Sequence record: MT932213.1
Length of the DNA: 64,000 nt
Direction: 5' to 3' (one strand)
Source of the DNA: Escherichia phage VEc74
Of the stretch, positions 2,961 to 34,758 are shown one piece after another. The notes under the pieces are model-generated. The model did not search any database. It was not told the DNA's origin and saw only the letters and a list, made by a program, of their open reading frames with translations. The translations under genes were made by a program, and so were the position numbers. Every line of letters begins with the position of its first letter. Within the stretch, counting starts at the first letter, position 1.

Positions 2961-3010
2961 TTAATATCCTCATTGTTTTGGTTTATTTTACCAAAAATTT
3001 ATAAAGCAAT

Positions 3011-3030
3011 ATAGGAGCCGAGGCTCCTAT
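3011..3030 (-). terminator. Stem-loop upstream of a-gt (putative terminator/attenuator)
   Basis: ataggagccgaggctcctat perfect hairpin followed on minus strand by T-rich ATTGCTTTATAAATTTTT. Confidence 0.35.
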
Positions 3031-3203
3031 CCGCATAATACGCCATACAGAGGCTCATTAGAGCTTCTAAATTTTATGCGCTTATATGTTATAGTTCCTT
3101 CTGCTTTAGCTTTATCGTGAGCCTCTTTAAAGCGTCTCATCATTTCTACTTTAGAGGAACGAATTTTATTATAATCTATTTCAGAAGTCTGGGTGTTCAT
3201 CTT

Positions 3204-26860: not shown

Positions 26861-27038
26861 CTAAACGAATAGGTTCATGAATGCCATATCCCTGAACAGA
26901 AATTTCTGTAGTAGGATAAATTCCATTAATATCACCCATGTTCCATGCTTCGTTAAATTGCTGTTCGCCTGAATTACTAAACCATTCGGCGAAAGCATTT
27001 AGCACATCTTCAGAACCTTCAATAATTATCTTTGCCAT
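26817..27038 (-). CDS. Hypothetical small acidic protein (vs.5 position)
   Basis: ORF track. Confidence 0.45.
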   Translation of the reverse strand: MAKIIIEGSEDVLNAFAEWFSNSGEQQFNEAWNMGDINGIYPTTEISVQGYGIHEPIRLVEYDLCTGEEVKYD

Positions 27039-27400
27039 TACAAACTCTCGGTAAAGGTACGAGCGATAACATCGCGCTGCTGTTCCGGAGTCAGAGAGTT
27101 AAAGCGAACTGCATAACCGGATACACGAATGGTCAGCTGCGGATATTTTTCCGGATGCTTAACTGCATCTTCCAGAGTTTCACGACGCAGAACGTTAACG
27201 TTCAGGTGTTGACCACCTTCAATTTTAACTGTAGGCTGTGGCTCAATTTCAATTTCACGGGCATGCAAACCATAGAAAATTTCTGGGTCTACAAAAGAGT
27301 CCTCTTTAAAGGTTTTAGAAACGATAATTCGTGCTTGAATACCATCTTCAAAATAAATAGTACCTTTATGTGTGCCTTCAAGAATTTGATATGCTTTCAT
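27038..27400 (-). CDS. Autonomous glycyl-radical cofactor (GrcA/YfiD-like)
   Basis: 120 aa ending with glycyl-radical signature [26 protein letters not shown]. Confidence 0.8.
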
Positions 27401-27407
27401 ATAAACC

Positions 27408-27737
27408 TCAATTAGAAAATAAATTTATCCAAGATTGTTCTTTAATTAAAAATGGCTCAGAATCATATGCCATTAAACTCTGTGTGATTAGTCCTTTAAA
27501 AGGCCCATCAATAAATTCCATGGTAAAATATGGAATTTTATTCATTAGCCGTGCATTAGGAGCAGTGCACAAAACTCTGCATCCTTTGAATACACCTTTT
27601 TGTAATTTGTATTGTTTGGGATAAAATTCGCTTAAAATGTTGTTATTTGCCAAAATTTCAAAATGATTCACCAATTTATTTTTAATAGTTTTTGGCGAAA
27701 AATAAAGATATTCGAAAAGCTGAGTGTCTGTCATCAT
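27408..27737 (-). CDS. Hypothetical protein (vs.7 position)
   Basis: ORF track trimmed to internal ATG. Confidence 0.4.
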
Positions 27738-28321
27738 TGCATTCCAATTACGAAAAACTGTGGACGAGTAATACCACCAATACAACATTTAATATTACAG
27801 CAGCAGTGTACAGTGTCAATATGGACACTATAAATCTTATCCATATCAGGAGATTTGACAGGCTCATCAATTATATATAAAATTCGCGAAAGCGATAAAC
27901 CTCTGAACTTGCTTCCTTTATTACCAATAAAACTGCGCACAGAATCAGTAAATAAACGAAAACGTATATCATCATTAGAATAACGCGAAAATTCCTTTTT
28001 AATGTTATTTGCAGAAATTTTAGCGTAAGCTGAAGTATTAGAAAGAACAATAACTGTTCCGCCATCATACAACCAATTAGCAGCAAAGTTAGTCACAGCA
28101 ATTGATTTACCGGATTGACGTCCACCATCTAGTCGAAGTGTACAATACTGTTTAAGTAAGTCTTCAAATGGCGGGATATATTCGTTTTTACAAATTTCTT
28201 CTACTCTAGCATCAGAATGGTGTGTAAAAGCATTCATCAGGGATAGATAAGGACCAGTTAAAAATGTTCTCATTTTATTCTCTCTAAATTTGGGCCATTC
28301 CATGGCGCATGAATTGTCCAT
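27734..28321 (-). CDS. P-loop NTPase-like protein (vs.8 position)
   Basis: Walker A-like GGRQSGKS; ATG at 28321 lies inside repeat copy 1. Confidence 0.5.
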   Translation of the reverse strand: MDNSCAMEWPKFRENKMRTFLTGPYLSLMNAFTHHSDARVEEICKNEYIPPFEDLLKQYCTLRLDGGRQSGKSIAVTNFAANWLYDGGTVIVLSNTSAYAKISANNIKKEFSRYSNDDIRFRLFTDSVRSFIGNKGSKFRGLSLSRILYIIDEPVKSPDMDKIYSVHIDTVHCCCNIKCCIGGITRPQFFVIGMQ

Positions 28322-28341
28322 TTCTGTATTTACCCATTACC
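28292..28341 (-). repeat. Direct repeat copy 1 (carries the start codon of 27734..28321)
   Basis: 31-nt core gaattgtccatttctgtatttacccattacc repeated 29/31 at 28947..28977. Confidence 0.6.
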
Positions 28342-28414
28342 GCACTTGGGCTCGACCTTATTACAGGTTGGCGGGAATCCCTCACAGAATCATGAGGTCC
28401 AGGTTGTTCCCATG

Positions 28415-28888
28415 TTATTTGAACGATTTAACGTACTGAATAGAACCTTTACTATTCACAAAGGCAATTTTACCATTTTTGTTATACATAGTAGCAGTAC
28501 GTTGATAGCCATAAGTTTGCTTACCAGATTGATAACCAACTAATGCAAAATTATCTTCACCCATTTTATTCTGTTTAGCGCGAATGCGTTCATGACCATG
28601 TGCCATAAGAACCTTAGCATCACCAGTTGCAATGGATCGACGAGTTTTTTCATCTTCAACTGTATTAACAAAGTCGTCAAATGAATCAAATTTAGCATGA
28701 GATTTATTATACAGTTTTCCATCTACTGCATAATTATATCCTTGTACATCCATCTCAACTTCTGTACCATCATCTAATACAGCAGTAATTTTCTGTCCTT
28801 TTTTAAATTTCAAAAGATCAGTAAAAGATTCAGCAATAATTTGAGAATTAATAGCTGCCTCAGTAATAAATTCTTGATATGTTTTCAT
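28415..28888 (-). CDS. Internal-protein-like capsid-targeted protein (CTS leader MKTYQEFITEA)
   Basis: N-terminus matches the T4 internal-protein capsid-targeting sequence with L/I-x-E cleavage context. Confidence 0.65.
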   Translation of the reverse strand: MKTYQEFITEAAINSQIIAESFTDLLKFKKGQKITAVLDDGTEVEMDVQGYNYAVDGKLYNKSHAKFDSFDDFVNTVEDEKTRRSIATGDAKVLMAHGHERIRAKQNKMGEDNFALVGYQSGKQTYGYQRTATMYNKNGKIAFVNSKGSIQYVKSFK

Positions 28889-28929
28889 GTATATCCTTTA
28901 AATGTAAATAGTTTTATTCTTTAAGTTTT

Positions 28930-28977
28930 GGACAATTCATGCGTGTGAATTGTCCGTTTCTATATTTACCCATTACC
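28930..28977 (-). repeat. Direct repeat copy 2 with perfect palindrome ggacaattca/tgaattgtcc; start codon position reads ACG
   Basis: 28947..28977 is 29/31 identical to copy 1; 28930..28955 forms a 10-bp-stem hairpin. Confidence 0.6.
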
Positions 28978-28996
28978 AGGTTCGAACTCGGCTTTA

Positions 28997-29561
28997 TTAA
29001 GAATTACCGCGGGCTGCATTAGCAACGGCGTAAGCGTACTGAACATTAGCGTCTTTAAACGTACCTTTAGAGGTATCTAGTTCTGCCTTAAAGCCACCTT
29101 TAGTCATAACCTCGGCGAATTCTTTACGGAAAGCCATTGCATCAAGACTTCTCCATGATGATTTGTGCTTGGCGAATTCAAGACCAGCGTAGTTGACAGC
29201 CTTAGCTAATTTATTATCAATAACCCATTTACCAGCTTTAGGCACAAACACCGGGCCTTTCTGTTTAGAGAACAGTTTTAAATTCCAGCGACGAAGGTCA
29301 CCGTCGGCTTTAACAAAAGCTGCGTCTAAGTTACTAGCAACAACATCCTGAATATGGCCAAATTTAAGCCCATCAACTTCAATATTTAGATCGGTACGCC
29401 AGCGAAGTCCTTCCCAAGCGAAAGCTTTAAAGTCGGAAGCCTTTGTAGCTAAGTACCGTTCAATAGGAGCCGTTTCCCGATCGATAGGTCCACTCATCTT
29501 TATTAATGCCTTTGGCCTTTTCCACAGAAGCTTCAGCGATAAATTCTTTATACGTTTTCAT
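28997..29561 (-). pseudogene. Internal-protein-like gene with frameshift between CTS leader and body (or sequencing indel)
   Basis: ATG at 29561 encodes MKTYKEFIAEASVEKAKGINKDEW... which stops after 33 codons; the 166-aa body (28997..29497) is in the -1 frame and that frame is open across the junction. Confidence 0.45.
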
Positions 29562-29577
29562 GTGTTTCCTTTAATTT

Positions 29578-29895
29578 TTATTCTTTAGGGAAGTTTTTAG
29601 AATATGCATCATAAAGCTTATTTCCAATACGGCGGAAAACTCTAGCCGCAAAACGATTTTCTGGGTTTTTAATCATGATTTGCATCATATAAGTACCCGC
29701 GTCAGAAAGAGCTTCTTCATAGTACCCATTAATTTCTTTAAGAGTCCTACGTTTACCACCAGGACCATCAACAGTGATTTTCCATTTACCTGTAGAAGTG
29801 CGACTTGGCGGCTCAACTTGTTCAATCCAGATATAACCACCTTCTACACGTTGTCCTGCAGCAGATTCTGCAATAAATTCTTGATAGGTTTTCAT
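29578..29895 (-). CDS. Internal-protein-like capsid-targeted protein (CTS leader MKTYQEFIAES)
   Basis: 105 aa, basic; CTS leader; own early promoter. Confidence 0.65.
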   Translation of the reverse strand: MKTYQEFIAESAAGQRVEGGYIWIEQVEPPSRTSTGKWKITVDGPGGKRRTLKEINGYYEEALSDAGTYMMQIMIKNPENRFAARVFRRIGNKLYDAYSKNFPKE

Positions 29896-29944
29896 GTGTT
29901 TCCTTTAAATATTTTAATTAGTAATTTGTCTCTTCAAGTAACTG

Positions 29945-29982
29945 TGAATATACTATCACAATTCCAAGAGAAAGTAAACAAC
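29945..29982 (-). promoter_or_regulatory. T4-type early promoter
   Basis: minus-strand GTTTAC (plus 29974..29979) upstream of 29578..29895. Confidence 0.45.
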
Positions 29983-29983
29983 T

Positions 29984-30952
<969 letters not shown>

Positions 30953-30971
<19 letters not shown>

Positions 30972-31315
30972 TCACTCACAAACTCTTTCATTGACTCATT
31001 TTCAATATAAGACATGTAGCTATTATATTCCTTTAATTGTATTTTGTAATCCTTTTTTCTTTGCCAATTTATTTTAAAATTATCATAATGAAAATATAAA
31101 ATGATACCAAAGAATGAAAACAATGAAATAATTTTAGTATAACAAAGCTCACTCCAAACTTCTGTTATATTTACTGTGCCGTCGATGTTTAAAATAAGAC
31201 AGTCAATTAACAATCCAAAAAGACTACCCGCAAGAGCTGCAGCCAACGCCACAGCAAAAATTAAAAATGACTCAGGAAACGAATATTTGACTTTATTTAG
31301 TTTTGGCTTTTGCAT
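30953..31315 (-). CDS. Membrane protein
   Basis: Hydrophobic segments (FLIFAVALAAALAGSLFGLLIDCLIL). Confidence 0.45.
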
Positions 31316-34003: not shown

Positions 34004-34079
34004 TGGTCGAGGCAGTAGGGATCGAACCTACGACCCAGGACTTAGAAGGTCCTTGCTCTTCCTTCTGAGCTATGCCTCG
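34004..34079 (-). tRNA. tRNA-Arg (anticodon UCU)
   Basis: Hand-folded cloverleaf: acceptor CGAGGCA/TGCCTCG, anticodon loop CUUCUAA, T-loop GGTTCGATCC, encoded CCA. Confidence 0.85.
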
Positions 34080-34083
34080 TATT

Positions 34084-34158
34084 TGGCGGACGTGATAGGA
34101 TTCGAACCTATAACCAATCGCTTAACAGGCGATCGCTCTGCCATTGAGCTACACATCC
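34084..34158 (-). tRNA. tRNA-Asn (anticodon GUU)
   Basis: Acceptor GGATGTG/CACGTCC, anticodon stem ATCGC/GCGAT with loop CUGUUAA, T-loop GGTTCGAATCC, CCA. Confidence 0.85.
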
Positions 34159-34162
34159 AAAT

Positions 34163-34249
34163 TGGTGGGGAGTGGTGGAGTCGAACCACCCGAGTCGCAA
34201 TGACAATGGATTTACAGTCCACACCGCTACCTCTACGGGATAACTCCCC
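34163..34249 (-). tRNA. tRNA-Tyr (anticodon GUA), long variable arm
   Basis: Acceptor GGGGAGT/ACTCCCC, anticodon loop CUGUAAA, long variable arm, T-loop GGTTCGACTCC, CCA. Confidence 0.8.
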
Positions 34250-34259
34250 CAAATTAATT

Positions 34260-34334
34260 TGGTGGCCCTGGGTGGAATTGAACCACCATCTGGCGATTAT
34301 GAGTCGCTTGCTTGAACCTTCCAGCTACAGGGCC
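34260..34334 (-). tRNA. tRNA-Ile (anticodon CAU, T4 tRNA-Ile type; tRNA-Met not excluded)
   Basis: Acceptor GGCCCTG/CAGGGCC, anticodon loop CUCAUAA, T-loop GGTTCAATTCC, CCA. Confidence 0.8.
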
Positions 34335-34335
34335 T

Positions 34336-34411
34336 TGGTGCTGATTGACGGAATCGAACCGCCGACCTTCTCATTACAAGTGAGTTGCTCTACCTACTAA
34401 GCTAAATCAGC
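34336..34411 (-). tRNA. tRNA-Thr (anticodon UGU)
   Basis: Acceptor GCTGATT/AATCAGC, anticodon loop CUUGUAA, T-loop GGTTCGATTCC, CCA. Confidence 0.85.
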
Positions 34412-34416
34412 AAAAC

Positions 34417-34506
34417 TGGCGGAGGCGATAGGATTTGAACCTATGAGTCGCCGGAGCGACTGCCGGTTTTCAAGACCGGTGCATTAAACCACTCTGCCAC
34501 GCCTCC
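34417..34506 (-). tRNA. tRNA-Ser (anticodon UGA), long variable arm
   Basis: Acceptor GGAGGCG/CGCCTCC, anticodon stem CCGGT/ACCGG with loop CUUGAAA, long variable arm, CCA. Confidence 0.85.
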
Positions 34507-34508
34507 AG

Positions 34509-34582
34509 TCTCCGCGGCAGGATTTGAACCTGCGACATTCTGCTCCCAAAGCAGACGCTCTACCAAACTGAGCTACACGGAG
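34509..34582 (-). tRNA. tRNA-Pro (anticodon UGG), CCA not encoded
   Basis: Acceptor CTCCGTG/CGCGGAG, anticodon loop UUUGGGA, T-loop GGTTCAAATCC; discriminator followed by CU then tRNA-Ser (2-nt spacer). Confidence 0.85.
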
Positions 34583-34592
34583 TAAATTAAAT

Positions 34593-34666
<74 letters not shown>

Positions 34667-34671
34667 AAATT

Positions 34672-34758
34672 TGGTGCGAGAAGTGGGACTCGAACCCACA
34701 AGGAAATCATTCCGCAGCATTTTAAGTGCTGTGCCTTTACCAATTTGGCCATTCTCGC
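34672..34758 (-). tRNA. tRNA-Leu (anticodon UAA), long variable arm
   Basis: Acceptor GCGAGAA/TTCTCGC, anticodon stem CAGCA/TGCTG with loop CUUAAAA, long variable arm, T-loop GGTTCGAGTCC, CCA. Confidence 0.85.

Follow-up and report, generated by a model that had tools for sequence, protein, structure and literature searches.

A Candidate Structured RNA in the vs.8 Leader of Escherichia Phage VEc74 and Its Probable Partial Duplicate behind ipIII

Introduction

GOLLD and ROOL are orphan structured RNAs of phages that lie near tRNA genes and have entries in Rfam. About 10,000 candidate viral structured RNAs have been catalogued (PMC10690425). For the internal-protein (IP) loci of T-even phages, modular shuffling was described by Repoila et al. 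1994, as related in PMC2839356 and PMC4122927, and promoter-early stem-loop (PeSL) cassettes are the subject of Arbiol et al. 2010 (PMC2839356) and Comeau et al. 2014 (PMC4122927). For T4, the record X04567 places a stem-loop B in the ipIII/ipII interval and marks it as a possible terminator of ipIII whose loop may contain the −10 element of ipII. Here we analyze a repeat pair in the vs.8-to-e segment of the Tequatrovirus (T4-like) Escherichia phage VEc74 (MT932213.1), which we compared with the same segment of fetched relatives; the window is the whole stretch of 64,000 nt. In it, a 31-nt sequence (31-mer) occurs once next to vs.8 (copy 1) and once behind ipIII (copy 2), on either side of a gene for a 157-aa protein with a capsid-targeting sequence (CTS). 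The original prediction read this arrangement as the footprint of a CTS cassette insertion. We find that copy 1 appears to belong to a non-coding leader that carries a compact, deeply conserved RNA motif, and that copy 2 is probably a degenerate partial duplicate of this leader.

Like GOLLD, ROOL, and the catalogued candidates, the vs.8-leader motif is phage-borne, supported by covariation, and located on the same strand as tRNA arrays, which it often adjoins. Unlike GOLLD and ROOL it is small, with a 47-nt core and one hairpin; none of the Rfam models matches it, and T4-likes carry it as a constant component of an mRNA leader. To the extent that Repoila-type loci are characterized in PMC2839356 and PMC4122927, the likeness consists in the same ipII/ipIII locus being hypervariable in the number, order, and identity of its CTS genes, and in conserved short sequences flanking the open reading frames (ORFs); the 31-mer is unlike the linker described there in that it differs from the leader/CTS block, occurs only twice, and derives from the vs.8 leader. 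That cassettes are shuffled at this locus was known before; what is unexpected is the RNA motif.

Results and Discussion

The 31-mer at 28311-28341 recurs at 28947-28977 with 29/31 positions identical, as the original prediction had stated, and these two matches are the only ones in the 64-kb window, the ipI region included; further matches at up to three mismatches appeared in 0/100 shuffles. The similarity, which had been described as continuing more weakly beyond the 31-mer, does so over 59 nt without gaps (78%; 28305-28363 versus 28941-28999) and over about 91 nt with gaps (76%, E 2.5e-13), and the position of an ATG in copy 1 indeed reads ACG in copy 2. Genome AT-richness by itself speaks for a chance or low-complexity likeness between intergenic stretches; given the empty shuffles, the gapped E value, and the presence of the pair in nine other phages, we regard this explanation as negligible.

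The meaning of the repeat depends on what copy 1 is. In the window, the ORF from ATG 28321 (195 aa) is open, and copy 1 had been taken to hold the start and first codons (MDNS) of this P-loop gene. We compared the copy 1 region in nine phages and in all three frames: Only phages reading AGAGAGAATAAAATG have the MDNS ATG in the vs.8 frame; it is out of frame in 5/9, namely T4, T2, Ozark, ZCEC14, and Some. The frame-changing site is AGAGAGAA(T)AAAATG, with a 1-nt indel in Ozark, ZCEC14, T2, and Some, which read the one base shorter AGAGAGAAGAAATG and in which the MDNS frame runs into a stop, and with a further insertion in T4. This insertion brings the third frame into phase, which is why the RefSeq T4 vs.8 is annotated as 219 aa. 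With a 179-aa query (MRTFLTGPYL...), vs.8 homologues cover at least 80% of its length in 1007/1009 records (tblastn); among the matches listed, alignments begin at residue 1-5 in all but two, at identities down to 36%. The 1986 T4 record gives five alternative vs.8 starts; judged by this conservation, the start would be ATG 28273 (MRTFL...), preceded by a GAGAG Shine–Dalgarno sequence. The broken MDNS frame of the relatives, together with homologues that align from MRTFL, argues that copy 1 is leader and not coding sequence: It appears to be part of a non-coding leader of about 140 nt between the upstream cassette gene and position 28273. Consequently, the assignment of the P-loop gene's start to copy 1 does not hold, and the “decayed start codon” ascribed to the upstream copy loses its meaning, because the copied segment is untranslated leader RNA.

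Four parts can be distinguished in this leader: a hairpin P1, a 47-nt structured motif closed by a helix P2, a linker, and a hairpin P5 by the ribosome-binding site. The 31-mer corresponds to the 3' strand of P2 plus the linker. Copy 1 is present in every T4-like locus fetched, and its 59 nt have a nucleotide diversity of 0.016 among 20 phages, versus 0.141 at third and about 0.03 at first and second positions of vs.8. Upstream of vs.8, the 31 nt CCTGTAATAAGGTCGAGCCCAAGTGCGGTAA are unchanged in T4, S16 (Gelderlandvirus), and JS98 (Dhakavirus; vs.8 63% identical), and the motif is kept in T4-likes with vs.8 proteins only about 40% identical; six T4-like genera have it with hardly any change, and its carriers include Moon, PM2, and fGh-Ecl01. 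Beyond T4-likes, a stretch of 40-45 nt with 86-95% identity to the leader was recovered by BLAST from rV5-like Vequintavirus genomes, from a Vibrio phage, and, via a related contig, from an N4-like Klebsiella phage. Exact-pattern scans yielded 17 stretches in IMG/VR contigs 14 to 170 kb in length. Of the pattern matches in metagenomes, about half were due to chance and were filtered out by requiring the motif's second half, which left 37 genuine instances; among 185,579 bacterial and archaeal species genomes there were 0 exact matches. The motif appears to be old and under strong constraint. Its sequence strings were not found in the literature searched.

Helix P2 pairs the three or four nucleotides before AACCUG with those after GGUAAU and contains a bulged G. 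On 39 distinct sequences it occurs with CG, GC, AU, and UA pairs, and 94% of the cells are paired. In the covariation test, three P2 pairs and one inner pair were found with all four types, with 26 double-changed cells versus 5.1 in shuffles; the score of 0.300 compares with 0.105 in shuffles, none of which (0/500) reached it, and with at most 0.068 when the partners were slid. This test is not circular, because P2 lies outside the search pattern. Moreover, fGh-Ecl01 (Karamvirus), which was retrieved via vs.8 and not via the pattern, has all four P2 pairs swapped in a compensatory manner (UGGU...A-GCCA). Compensatory pairs hence occur in independent lineages and beyond the controls, as is generally asked of a conserved structured RNA motif. 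The stems of P1 differ by lineage yet stay complementary (GGGAA/UUCCC, GGGAG/CUCCC, GGGG/CCCC, GGAAC/GUUCC, GAAUG/CAUUC, GAGUG/CACUC, UGAGG/CCUCA, and AAAGG/CCUUU), and since G-U pairs occur in both P2 and P1, the gene (transcribed) strand is the one that folds. P5 is kept in all T4-like genera aligned, with a compensatory exchange of C-G to G-C in PM2; Marfa has P5 without the motif. A single stable fold of the whole copy 1 region was rejected, as the region overall folds no better than shuffles (z = +0.54) and support is confined to local helices. Two alternative inner helices, a GGUCGAGCC hairpin and GAGCC/GGCUC, were likewise discarded, being broken in several lineages.

From the motif alignment we built the covariance model R1. 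Copy 1 obtains 71.8 bits under this model and independent instances obtain 36-64 bits; chance pattern matches do not exceed 25 bits. Rfam 15 (4227 models) gave nothing relevant at E up to 10, either in the window or in an rV5-like locus. Likewise, no tRNA or tmRNA match was obtained in 28250-28430 at E up to 10, and ARAGORN finds only the nine tRNAs at 34004-34758. In the N4-like locus, 400 nt separate the motif from a sub-threshold tmRNA_permuted match, and no tmRNA is predicted by ARAGORN; a tmRNA link, for which a resemblance to PK2 of E. coli tmRNA was also considered, was rejected, as this one match in one N4-like phage is all that the searches gave in its favor. A tRNA relic was also considered, because GGTTCGAAC in copy 2 resembles a T arm, and dropped, since ARAGORN and Rfam give nothing. 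Finally, a vs.8-specific riboswitch was rejected: Outside T4-likes no vs.8 or vs.7 homologue lies near the motif, and Marfa keeps P5 without it.

The motif crosses family borders. Its carriers comprise at least six T4-like genera of Straboviridae, Vequintavirinae, an N4-like Schitoviridae phage, and 43-47-kb and marine contigs, and the hosts are enterobacteria, vibrios, and environmental ones. When ARAGORN was run on the motif loci, every tRNA lay on the motif's strand in 32/32 loci with any tRNA gene. In phages other than T4-likes, 64-1200 nt separate the motif from the closest tRNA; in most T4-like loci that captured a tRNA array, the distance to this upstream array is about 5.7-6.2 kb. The motif of N4-like and rV5-like phages sits within stretches of 0.6-1 kb that have no annotated gene and adjoin the tRNA array. 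On this basis we propose, with about as much weight on one side of the scale as on the other, that the motif, in which a hairpin precedes a core of 47 nt that a bulged helix closes, represents a family of small structured RNAs of unrelated virulent phages that is undescribed as far as Rfam 15 and the literature searched reach. The family would be absent from cellular genomes and almost without exception share the strand of tRNA arrays, many of its members lying no more than 1.2 kb from them. The invariant CUGUAA of the motif resembles a tRNA-Tyr anticodon loop, and a tRNA-linked role, for example as a decoy or a processing signal, is conceivable. As a working guess, the RNA would act on, or be processed with, tRNA-related machinery, and would have become fixed in the vs.8 leader in T4-likes.

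Two observations were made in the surroundings of the motif. The 1-kb unannotated stretch that holds it after the tRNA array of the N4-like Klebsiella phage KpCHEMY26 (locus L116 2369-3371) also contains two long hairpins with near-identical stems (CACAACAGRTAAGAGCAYTG ... CARTG..GCTCTTTYCGTTGTG), and the sub-threshold permuted tmRNA match of Rfam lies here at 2999-3086 (33.7 bits, gathering score 47); the stretch may be a cluster of undescribed small RNAs. In rV5-like contigs, a second conserved element, YCCCYUAGAGGGCUUGAWAGUGC, is located upstream of the motif (L025, about 1560-1600), and the L035 type has it on both sides (about 20-60 and 175-215).

The annotation of vs.8 varies where it meets the leader. 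The RefSeq ORF of T4 (219 aa; NC_000866 64253-64912; locus L005 1754-2413) extends 40 codons upstream of the conserved start and crosses the RNA motif at T4 ~64,855-64,901, and some other records annotate a 33-aa ORF over the leader RNA (28385-28284); both look like annotation artefacts. Common polymorphisms in the 33-aa frame are synonymous. As a coding explanation of copy 1 this ORF was nevertheless rejected, because 31 nt are identical across genera without a synonymous change and because the frame is closed elsewhere, by a stop in the Vibrio phage and by a missing start in rV5-like phages (checked by eye). In Shfl2 (locus L001 ~1620-1640), one C is missing from the run CTATCCCTGATG near the vs.8 start, which causes a frameshift, and the annotated vs.8 starts later; in the T2 record PV648363 (locus L007 1951-2486), vs.8 is split into ORFs of 111 aa and 36 aa. 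Such broken frames may mean that vs.8 is dispensable, or they may stem from sequencing errors in homopolymers.

In contrast to copy 1, copy 2 has a narrow distribution. It always starts at the double stop TAATAA of ipIII and was found in about 15 of the 553 records that match the ipIII/copy 2 junction, all of them Tequatrovirus: the window, G4498, ECO07P2, SCS4/ECML-134, Shfl2, VIPECOOM01-03, JE01, TB004, ESh24, and W143. It is missing where ipIII is missing (Ozark, T2, and Some) and also in ipIII-bearing genomes with other spacer alleles (T4, SA21RB, and ZCEC14). The spacer behind ipIII has a constant frame, TAATAAAGC ... CTATTTACATTTAAAGG, and three alternative inserts: 12 nt in SA21RB and ZCEC14, the copy 2 block, and a T4 block with a 13-bp stem-loop that overlaps TTTACA-N17-TATATT. 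By this distribution copy 2 is tied to the 3' end of ipIII and not to Ip4, the 157-aa gene. As it begins inside the core at UAAUAA, it lacks P1 and the 5' strand of P2, and it carries changes at conserved positions (GGUCGAG to AGCCGAG and CGG to UGG, in the Shfl2 sub-type also the 3' strand of P2). Under R1 it scores 11.6 bits (E 0.32), and copy 2 of five other phages is unreported even with the filters off. Between sub-types, copy 2 varies at 6/59 positions, versus at most 2/59 for copy 1 in the same phages.

Because copy 1 is deeply conserved whereas copy 2 is degenerate and evolves faster, we consider copy 1 ancestral and functional and copy 2, in all probability, a derived partial duplicate. 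The original prediction was therefore right in outline about a duplication of the vs.8 5' region: Copy 1 is conserved across genera and families, copy 2 is confined to those few Tequatrovirus records. In the scenario that we favor, copy 2 would have arisen once, in a minority lineage of Tequatrovirus, when about 85-100 nt of leader were copied into the spacer behind ipIII and joined at the microhomology TAATAA(A/G)G, which is common to the ipIII double stop and the motif. Devoid of P1 and the P2 5' strand, the copy would since have been drifting and would be a relic as regards the motif.

At its other end copy 2 overlaps a 10-bp palindrome, which had been predicted to be perfect and is (Table 1); its RNA hairpin has a centroid energy of −13.6 kcal/mol. 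After the linker, copy 1 reads GGACAAUUCAUGCGCCAUGGAAUGGCCC, which holds P5 (GCCAU/AUGGC) and only an imperfect complement of GGACAAUUC. The left 45 nt of the two copies differ at 2-3 positions, the next 14 nt at five and by a 2-nt deletion, and these clustered changes of copy 2 yield a perfect complement of GGACAAUUCA and destroy P5. The right arm in the P5 region of copy 2 would hence have been rewritten in one cluster into the perfect complement of the upstream GGACAATTCA, and the palindrome presumably arose by a single templated (quasipalindrome) event. Quasipalindrome-templated mutation was reportedly described by Ripley and co-workers in T4 rII. The likeness is that changes in one arm turn the imperfect GGACAATTC...GAATGGCCC of copy 1 into the perfect repeat of copy 2; unlike in the rII mutants, the mutation is deduced here from natural variants and not from selected mutants. 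Hairpin-loop inversion, in turn, has been described for chloroplast hairpins, and the 26-nt palindrome similarly occurs in both orientations among close relatives (window 28930-28955; loci L006 2506-2531 and L017 ~1840-1865): In the window it is the exact reverse complement of the G4498 and ECO07P2 palindrome, and in TB004 it is the reverse complement of the form in Shfl2, VIPECOOM01, JE01, and W143, asymmetric mismatch included, plus one substitution. From these two pairs of reversals at least two independent flips follow, and the palindrome appears to be a recurrent small inversion at a hairpin.

Several points weigh against parts of this interpretation. The invariance of the core in our alignment A6 is partly by construction, as the instances were retrieved with an exact pattern, and the independent instances in PM2, KpCHEMY26, and fGh-Ecl01 do vary in the core. 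A crude shuffle test gave P1 moderate support only. The direction and number of duplications are deduced from distribution and not from a rooted tree, and the right limit of the duplicated segment is ambiguous, since AGAATAAAA also ends the T4-type spacer. Lastly, at the site of the putative ipIII terminator stem-loop of the T4 record, copy 2 has retained a strong hairpin, and it may be kept for a function of its own rather than as a pure relic.

This last point amounts to an alternative, namely that copy 2 was selected as a working element, for instance as a hairpin behind the abundant ipIII message that serves RNA 3'-end formation, stability, or attenuation, in the manner of T4 stem-loop B. 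The copy 2 hairpin is strong and occupies the same position in the same constant spacer frame as the different 13-bp stem-loop of T4; the arms share the heptamer GAATTGT/ACAATTC, and the stem is perfect or near perfect in 9/9 copy 2 sequences, in which loop and flanks vary. It is unlike stem-loop B in its sequence and reversed arm order, and the T4 loop overlaps a good early-type promoter that copy 2 lacks. On the minus (gene) strand the palindrome is followed by AAAACUUAAAG (the scan for intrinsic terminators reports the palindrome on the plus strand only), and because no U tract follows the hairpin on the gene strand it is not a canonical terminator. Furthermore, the third spacer allele of SA21RB and ZCEC14 is without any hairpin, palindromes can persist and flip unselected, and ipIII itself is broken in the window. 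We therefore rate selection on copy 2 as rather unlikely, although the palindrome may have an RNA-level role in place of the T4 ipIII stem-loop, and retain partial duplication with subsequent drift as the preferred reading.

The slot between the two copies is variable: It holds Ip4 in the window, Shfl2, G4498, SCS4, and ECO07P2, denV plus ipII in VIPECOOM01 and JE01, and ipII alone in W143, and from vs.8 to e, ten different gene orders were counted in the fetched loci. Ip4 adjoins vs.8 without any copy 2 in T2, Ozark, RB68, and SA21RB. Since this arrangement is common, the repeat is not the footprint of an Ip4 insertion; of the original prediction it stands that the copies bracket a variable slot, and what fails is the tie to the CTS cassette, as copy 2 goes with ipIII. 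The same evidence bears on the possibility that the 5' coding end of vs.8, start included, was duplicated upon insertion of Ip4 and that the upstream ATG then decayed to ACG. Although copy 2 does read ACG for the ATG of copy 1, the window does have an ORF starting at 28321, and the copies flank Ip4 there, this possibility is highly improbable in view of the MDNS ATG being out of frame in the five phages named above, the conserved protein starting at MRTFL, the same copy 2 flanking denV plus ipII or ipII alone, and the four phages in which Ip4 adjoins vs.8 without it.

The original prediction had also raised the question of whether the 31-mer marks other cassette junctions, and it does not. Ip4, ipIII, and the 105-aa gene begin with MKTY(Q/K)EFI.E and share a 55-nt block at 76-85% identity (repeat family D1), and it is these cassettes, not the 31-mer, that display the Repoila-type combination of a capsid-targeting leader of about 11 aa with a nucleotide block. 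The recurring linker is the IP leader/CTS block, which agrees with what the IP-locus and PeSL literature would predict (PMC2839356, PMC4122927). In about 39 records with a two-piece Lutter pattern, ipIII lies directly upstream of the vs.8 leader. Of these, Lutter and two IMG/VR contigs were examined in sequence detail. The Lutter junction lies within TATTTA(C/T)ATT, which is IP leader sequence and also ends VIPECOOM01-type denV. Lutter-type genomes are joined exactly at a 14-nt denV/IP-leader homology, which suggests that crossovers take place there. None of the 553 records that match the ipIII/copy 2 junction has a deletion by which the two copies were fused inside the 59-nt repeat. Cassette exchange would run via IP leader/CTS homology, and the two copies would merely happen to bracket the slot. 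As a separate observation, the last codons of VIPECOOM01-type denV, ATATTTACATTTAAATAA, are the same 14 nt as the IP-gene leader CTATTTACATTTAAAGG (window 28415-28417 and the equivalents in L002, L016, L011, and L012).

Could the repeat instead be a mobile cassette of the PeSL type, that is, an early promoter with a terminator stem-loop, whose copies act as recombination sites, possibly via mini-circles? PeSL-like elements are described at T-even IP loci (PMC2839356, PMC4122927), and the likeness lies in short intergenic repeats that adjoin indels in hyperplastic T4-like regions: A variable slot lies between the copies, a stem-loop occurs in copy 2, and the T4 allele of the ipIII spacer has one that overlaps TTTACA-N17-TATATT. 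Unlike PeSLs, the repeat has no −35/−10 pair and no common Shine–Dalgarno/ATG module. A promoter consensus scan of 27000-31000 gave no site in 28290-28365 or 28925-29000 on either strand, and promoters in or near the copies were rejected in the absence of a sigma-70-like site, of TATAAATA, which is found nearest only at the e gene, and of any MotA box seen by eye. A stable hairpin exists in copy 2 only, where the 10-bp perfect stem has a T run on the antisense and no U tract on the sense strand, whereas the copy 1 region folds no better than shuffles. In place of many dispersed copies with internal exchange points, there are two copies in 64 kb, no exchange is seen within the repeat (0 recombinants between copy 1 and copy 2 among the 553 records), and Lutter-type junctions fall in the IP leader TATTTACATT. 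We consider a PeSL-type element improbable and hold to a partial duplication of the vs.8 leader.

The features are collected in Table 1. All genes of the segment are on the minus strand, in the order vs.6, vs.7, vs.8, Ip4 (157 aa), ipIII, the 105-aa CTS gene, e, and nudE. No record of the phage collection matches the interval better than about 96%. That copy 2 lies upstream of a 157-aa CTS gene at 28415-28888 was correctly predicted, the product being identical to Ip4 of Shfl2, and so was the absence of a denV-like ORF: tblastn gave no denV match anywhere in the window. Compared with T4, ipIII has a 17-nt deletion at 29469-29485, between the short direct repeats AAACGGC and AAACAGC, which splits the gene into an ORF for a 33-aa CTS peptide and a 166-aa ORF without targeting leader; the disrupted gene is either a pseudogene or an assembly error. 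The nine tRNA genes at 34004-34758 (Arg, Asn, Tyr, Met/Ile-CAU, Thr, Ser, Pro, Gly, and Leu) are all on the minus strand; according to PMC4122927, T4 has eight tRNAs and PST nine.

Table 1. Positions of the repeat copies, RNA elements, and genes in the window.
Feature	Position	Strand	Remarks
vs.8 (P-loop protein, 179 aa)	27734..28273	-	predicted conserved start ATG 28273-28271; Shine–Dalgarno GAGAG 28280-28284
Hairpin P5	28294..28306	-	GCCAU GGA AUGGC; just upstream of the vs.8 Shine–Dalgarno; lost in copy 2, which has the palindrome instead
Repeat copy 1	28305..28363	-	putative section of the untranslated leader of vs.8; extends from within the RNA motif to P5
Structured RNA motif core	28328..28374	-	..GCCA ACCUGUAAUAAGGUCGAG CCCAAGUG CGGUAAU GGGU.., closed by P2; model R1 71.8 bits, E 1e-21
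Hairpin P1	28373..28411	-	GGGAA...UUCCC around CCUCAU...GUGAGG; directly 5' of the core; starts 3 nt past the Ip4 stop
Ip4 (157-aa internal protein, capsid-targeting leader)	28415..28888	-	cassette between both copies; 100% identical to Shfl2 Ip4
IP leader + CTS block	28852..28906	-	first of three copies; others 29525-29579 and 29859-29913
Perfect 10-bp palindrome, 6-nt loop	28930..28955 (arms 28930-28939 / 28946-28955)	.	GGACAATTCA-N6-TGAATTGTCC; overlaps the copy 2 end nearest Ip4
Repeat copy 2	28941..28999	-	probable duplicate of part of the leader, degenerate; starts at the TAATAA double stop of ipIII
ipIII	28997..29561	-	disrupted by a 17-nt deletion; double stop TAATAA is the left junction of copy 2
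105-aa CTS gene	29578-29895	-	window ORF
Lysozyme e	29984-30478	-	window ORF; followed by nudE

Conclusion

The seeming insertion footprint at the ipII/ipIII locus of VEc74 would be a by-product, and the repeat a one-off partial duplication. For vs.8, the gene model needs a corrected start, as both the 219-aa ORF of T4 and the 195-aa ORF of the window cross what appears to be conserved non-coding RNA. The locus can further be read as a natural record of a palindrome that was perfected and then flipped and, provided that the mutation was indeed templated, as direct evidence that hairpin-templated mutation shapes the intergenic DNA of T4-like phages. The motif itself is a compact, strongly constrained RNA in T4, the best-studied phage, with a cross-family distribution tied to tRNA arrays, and it is testable by T4 genetics.

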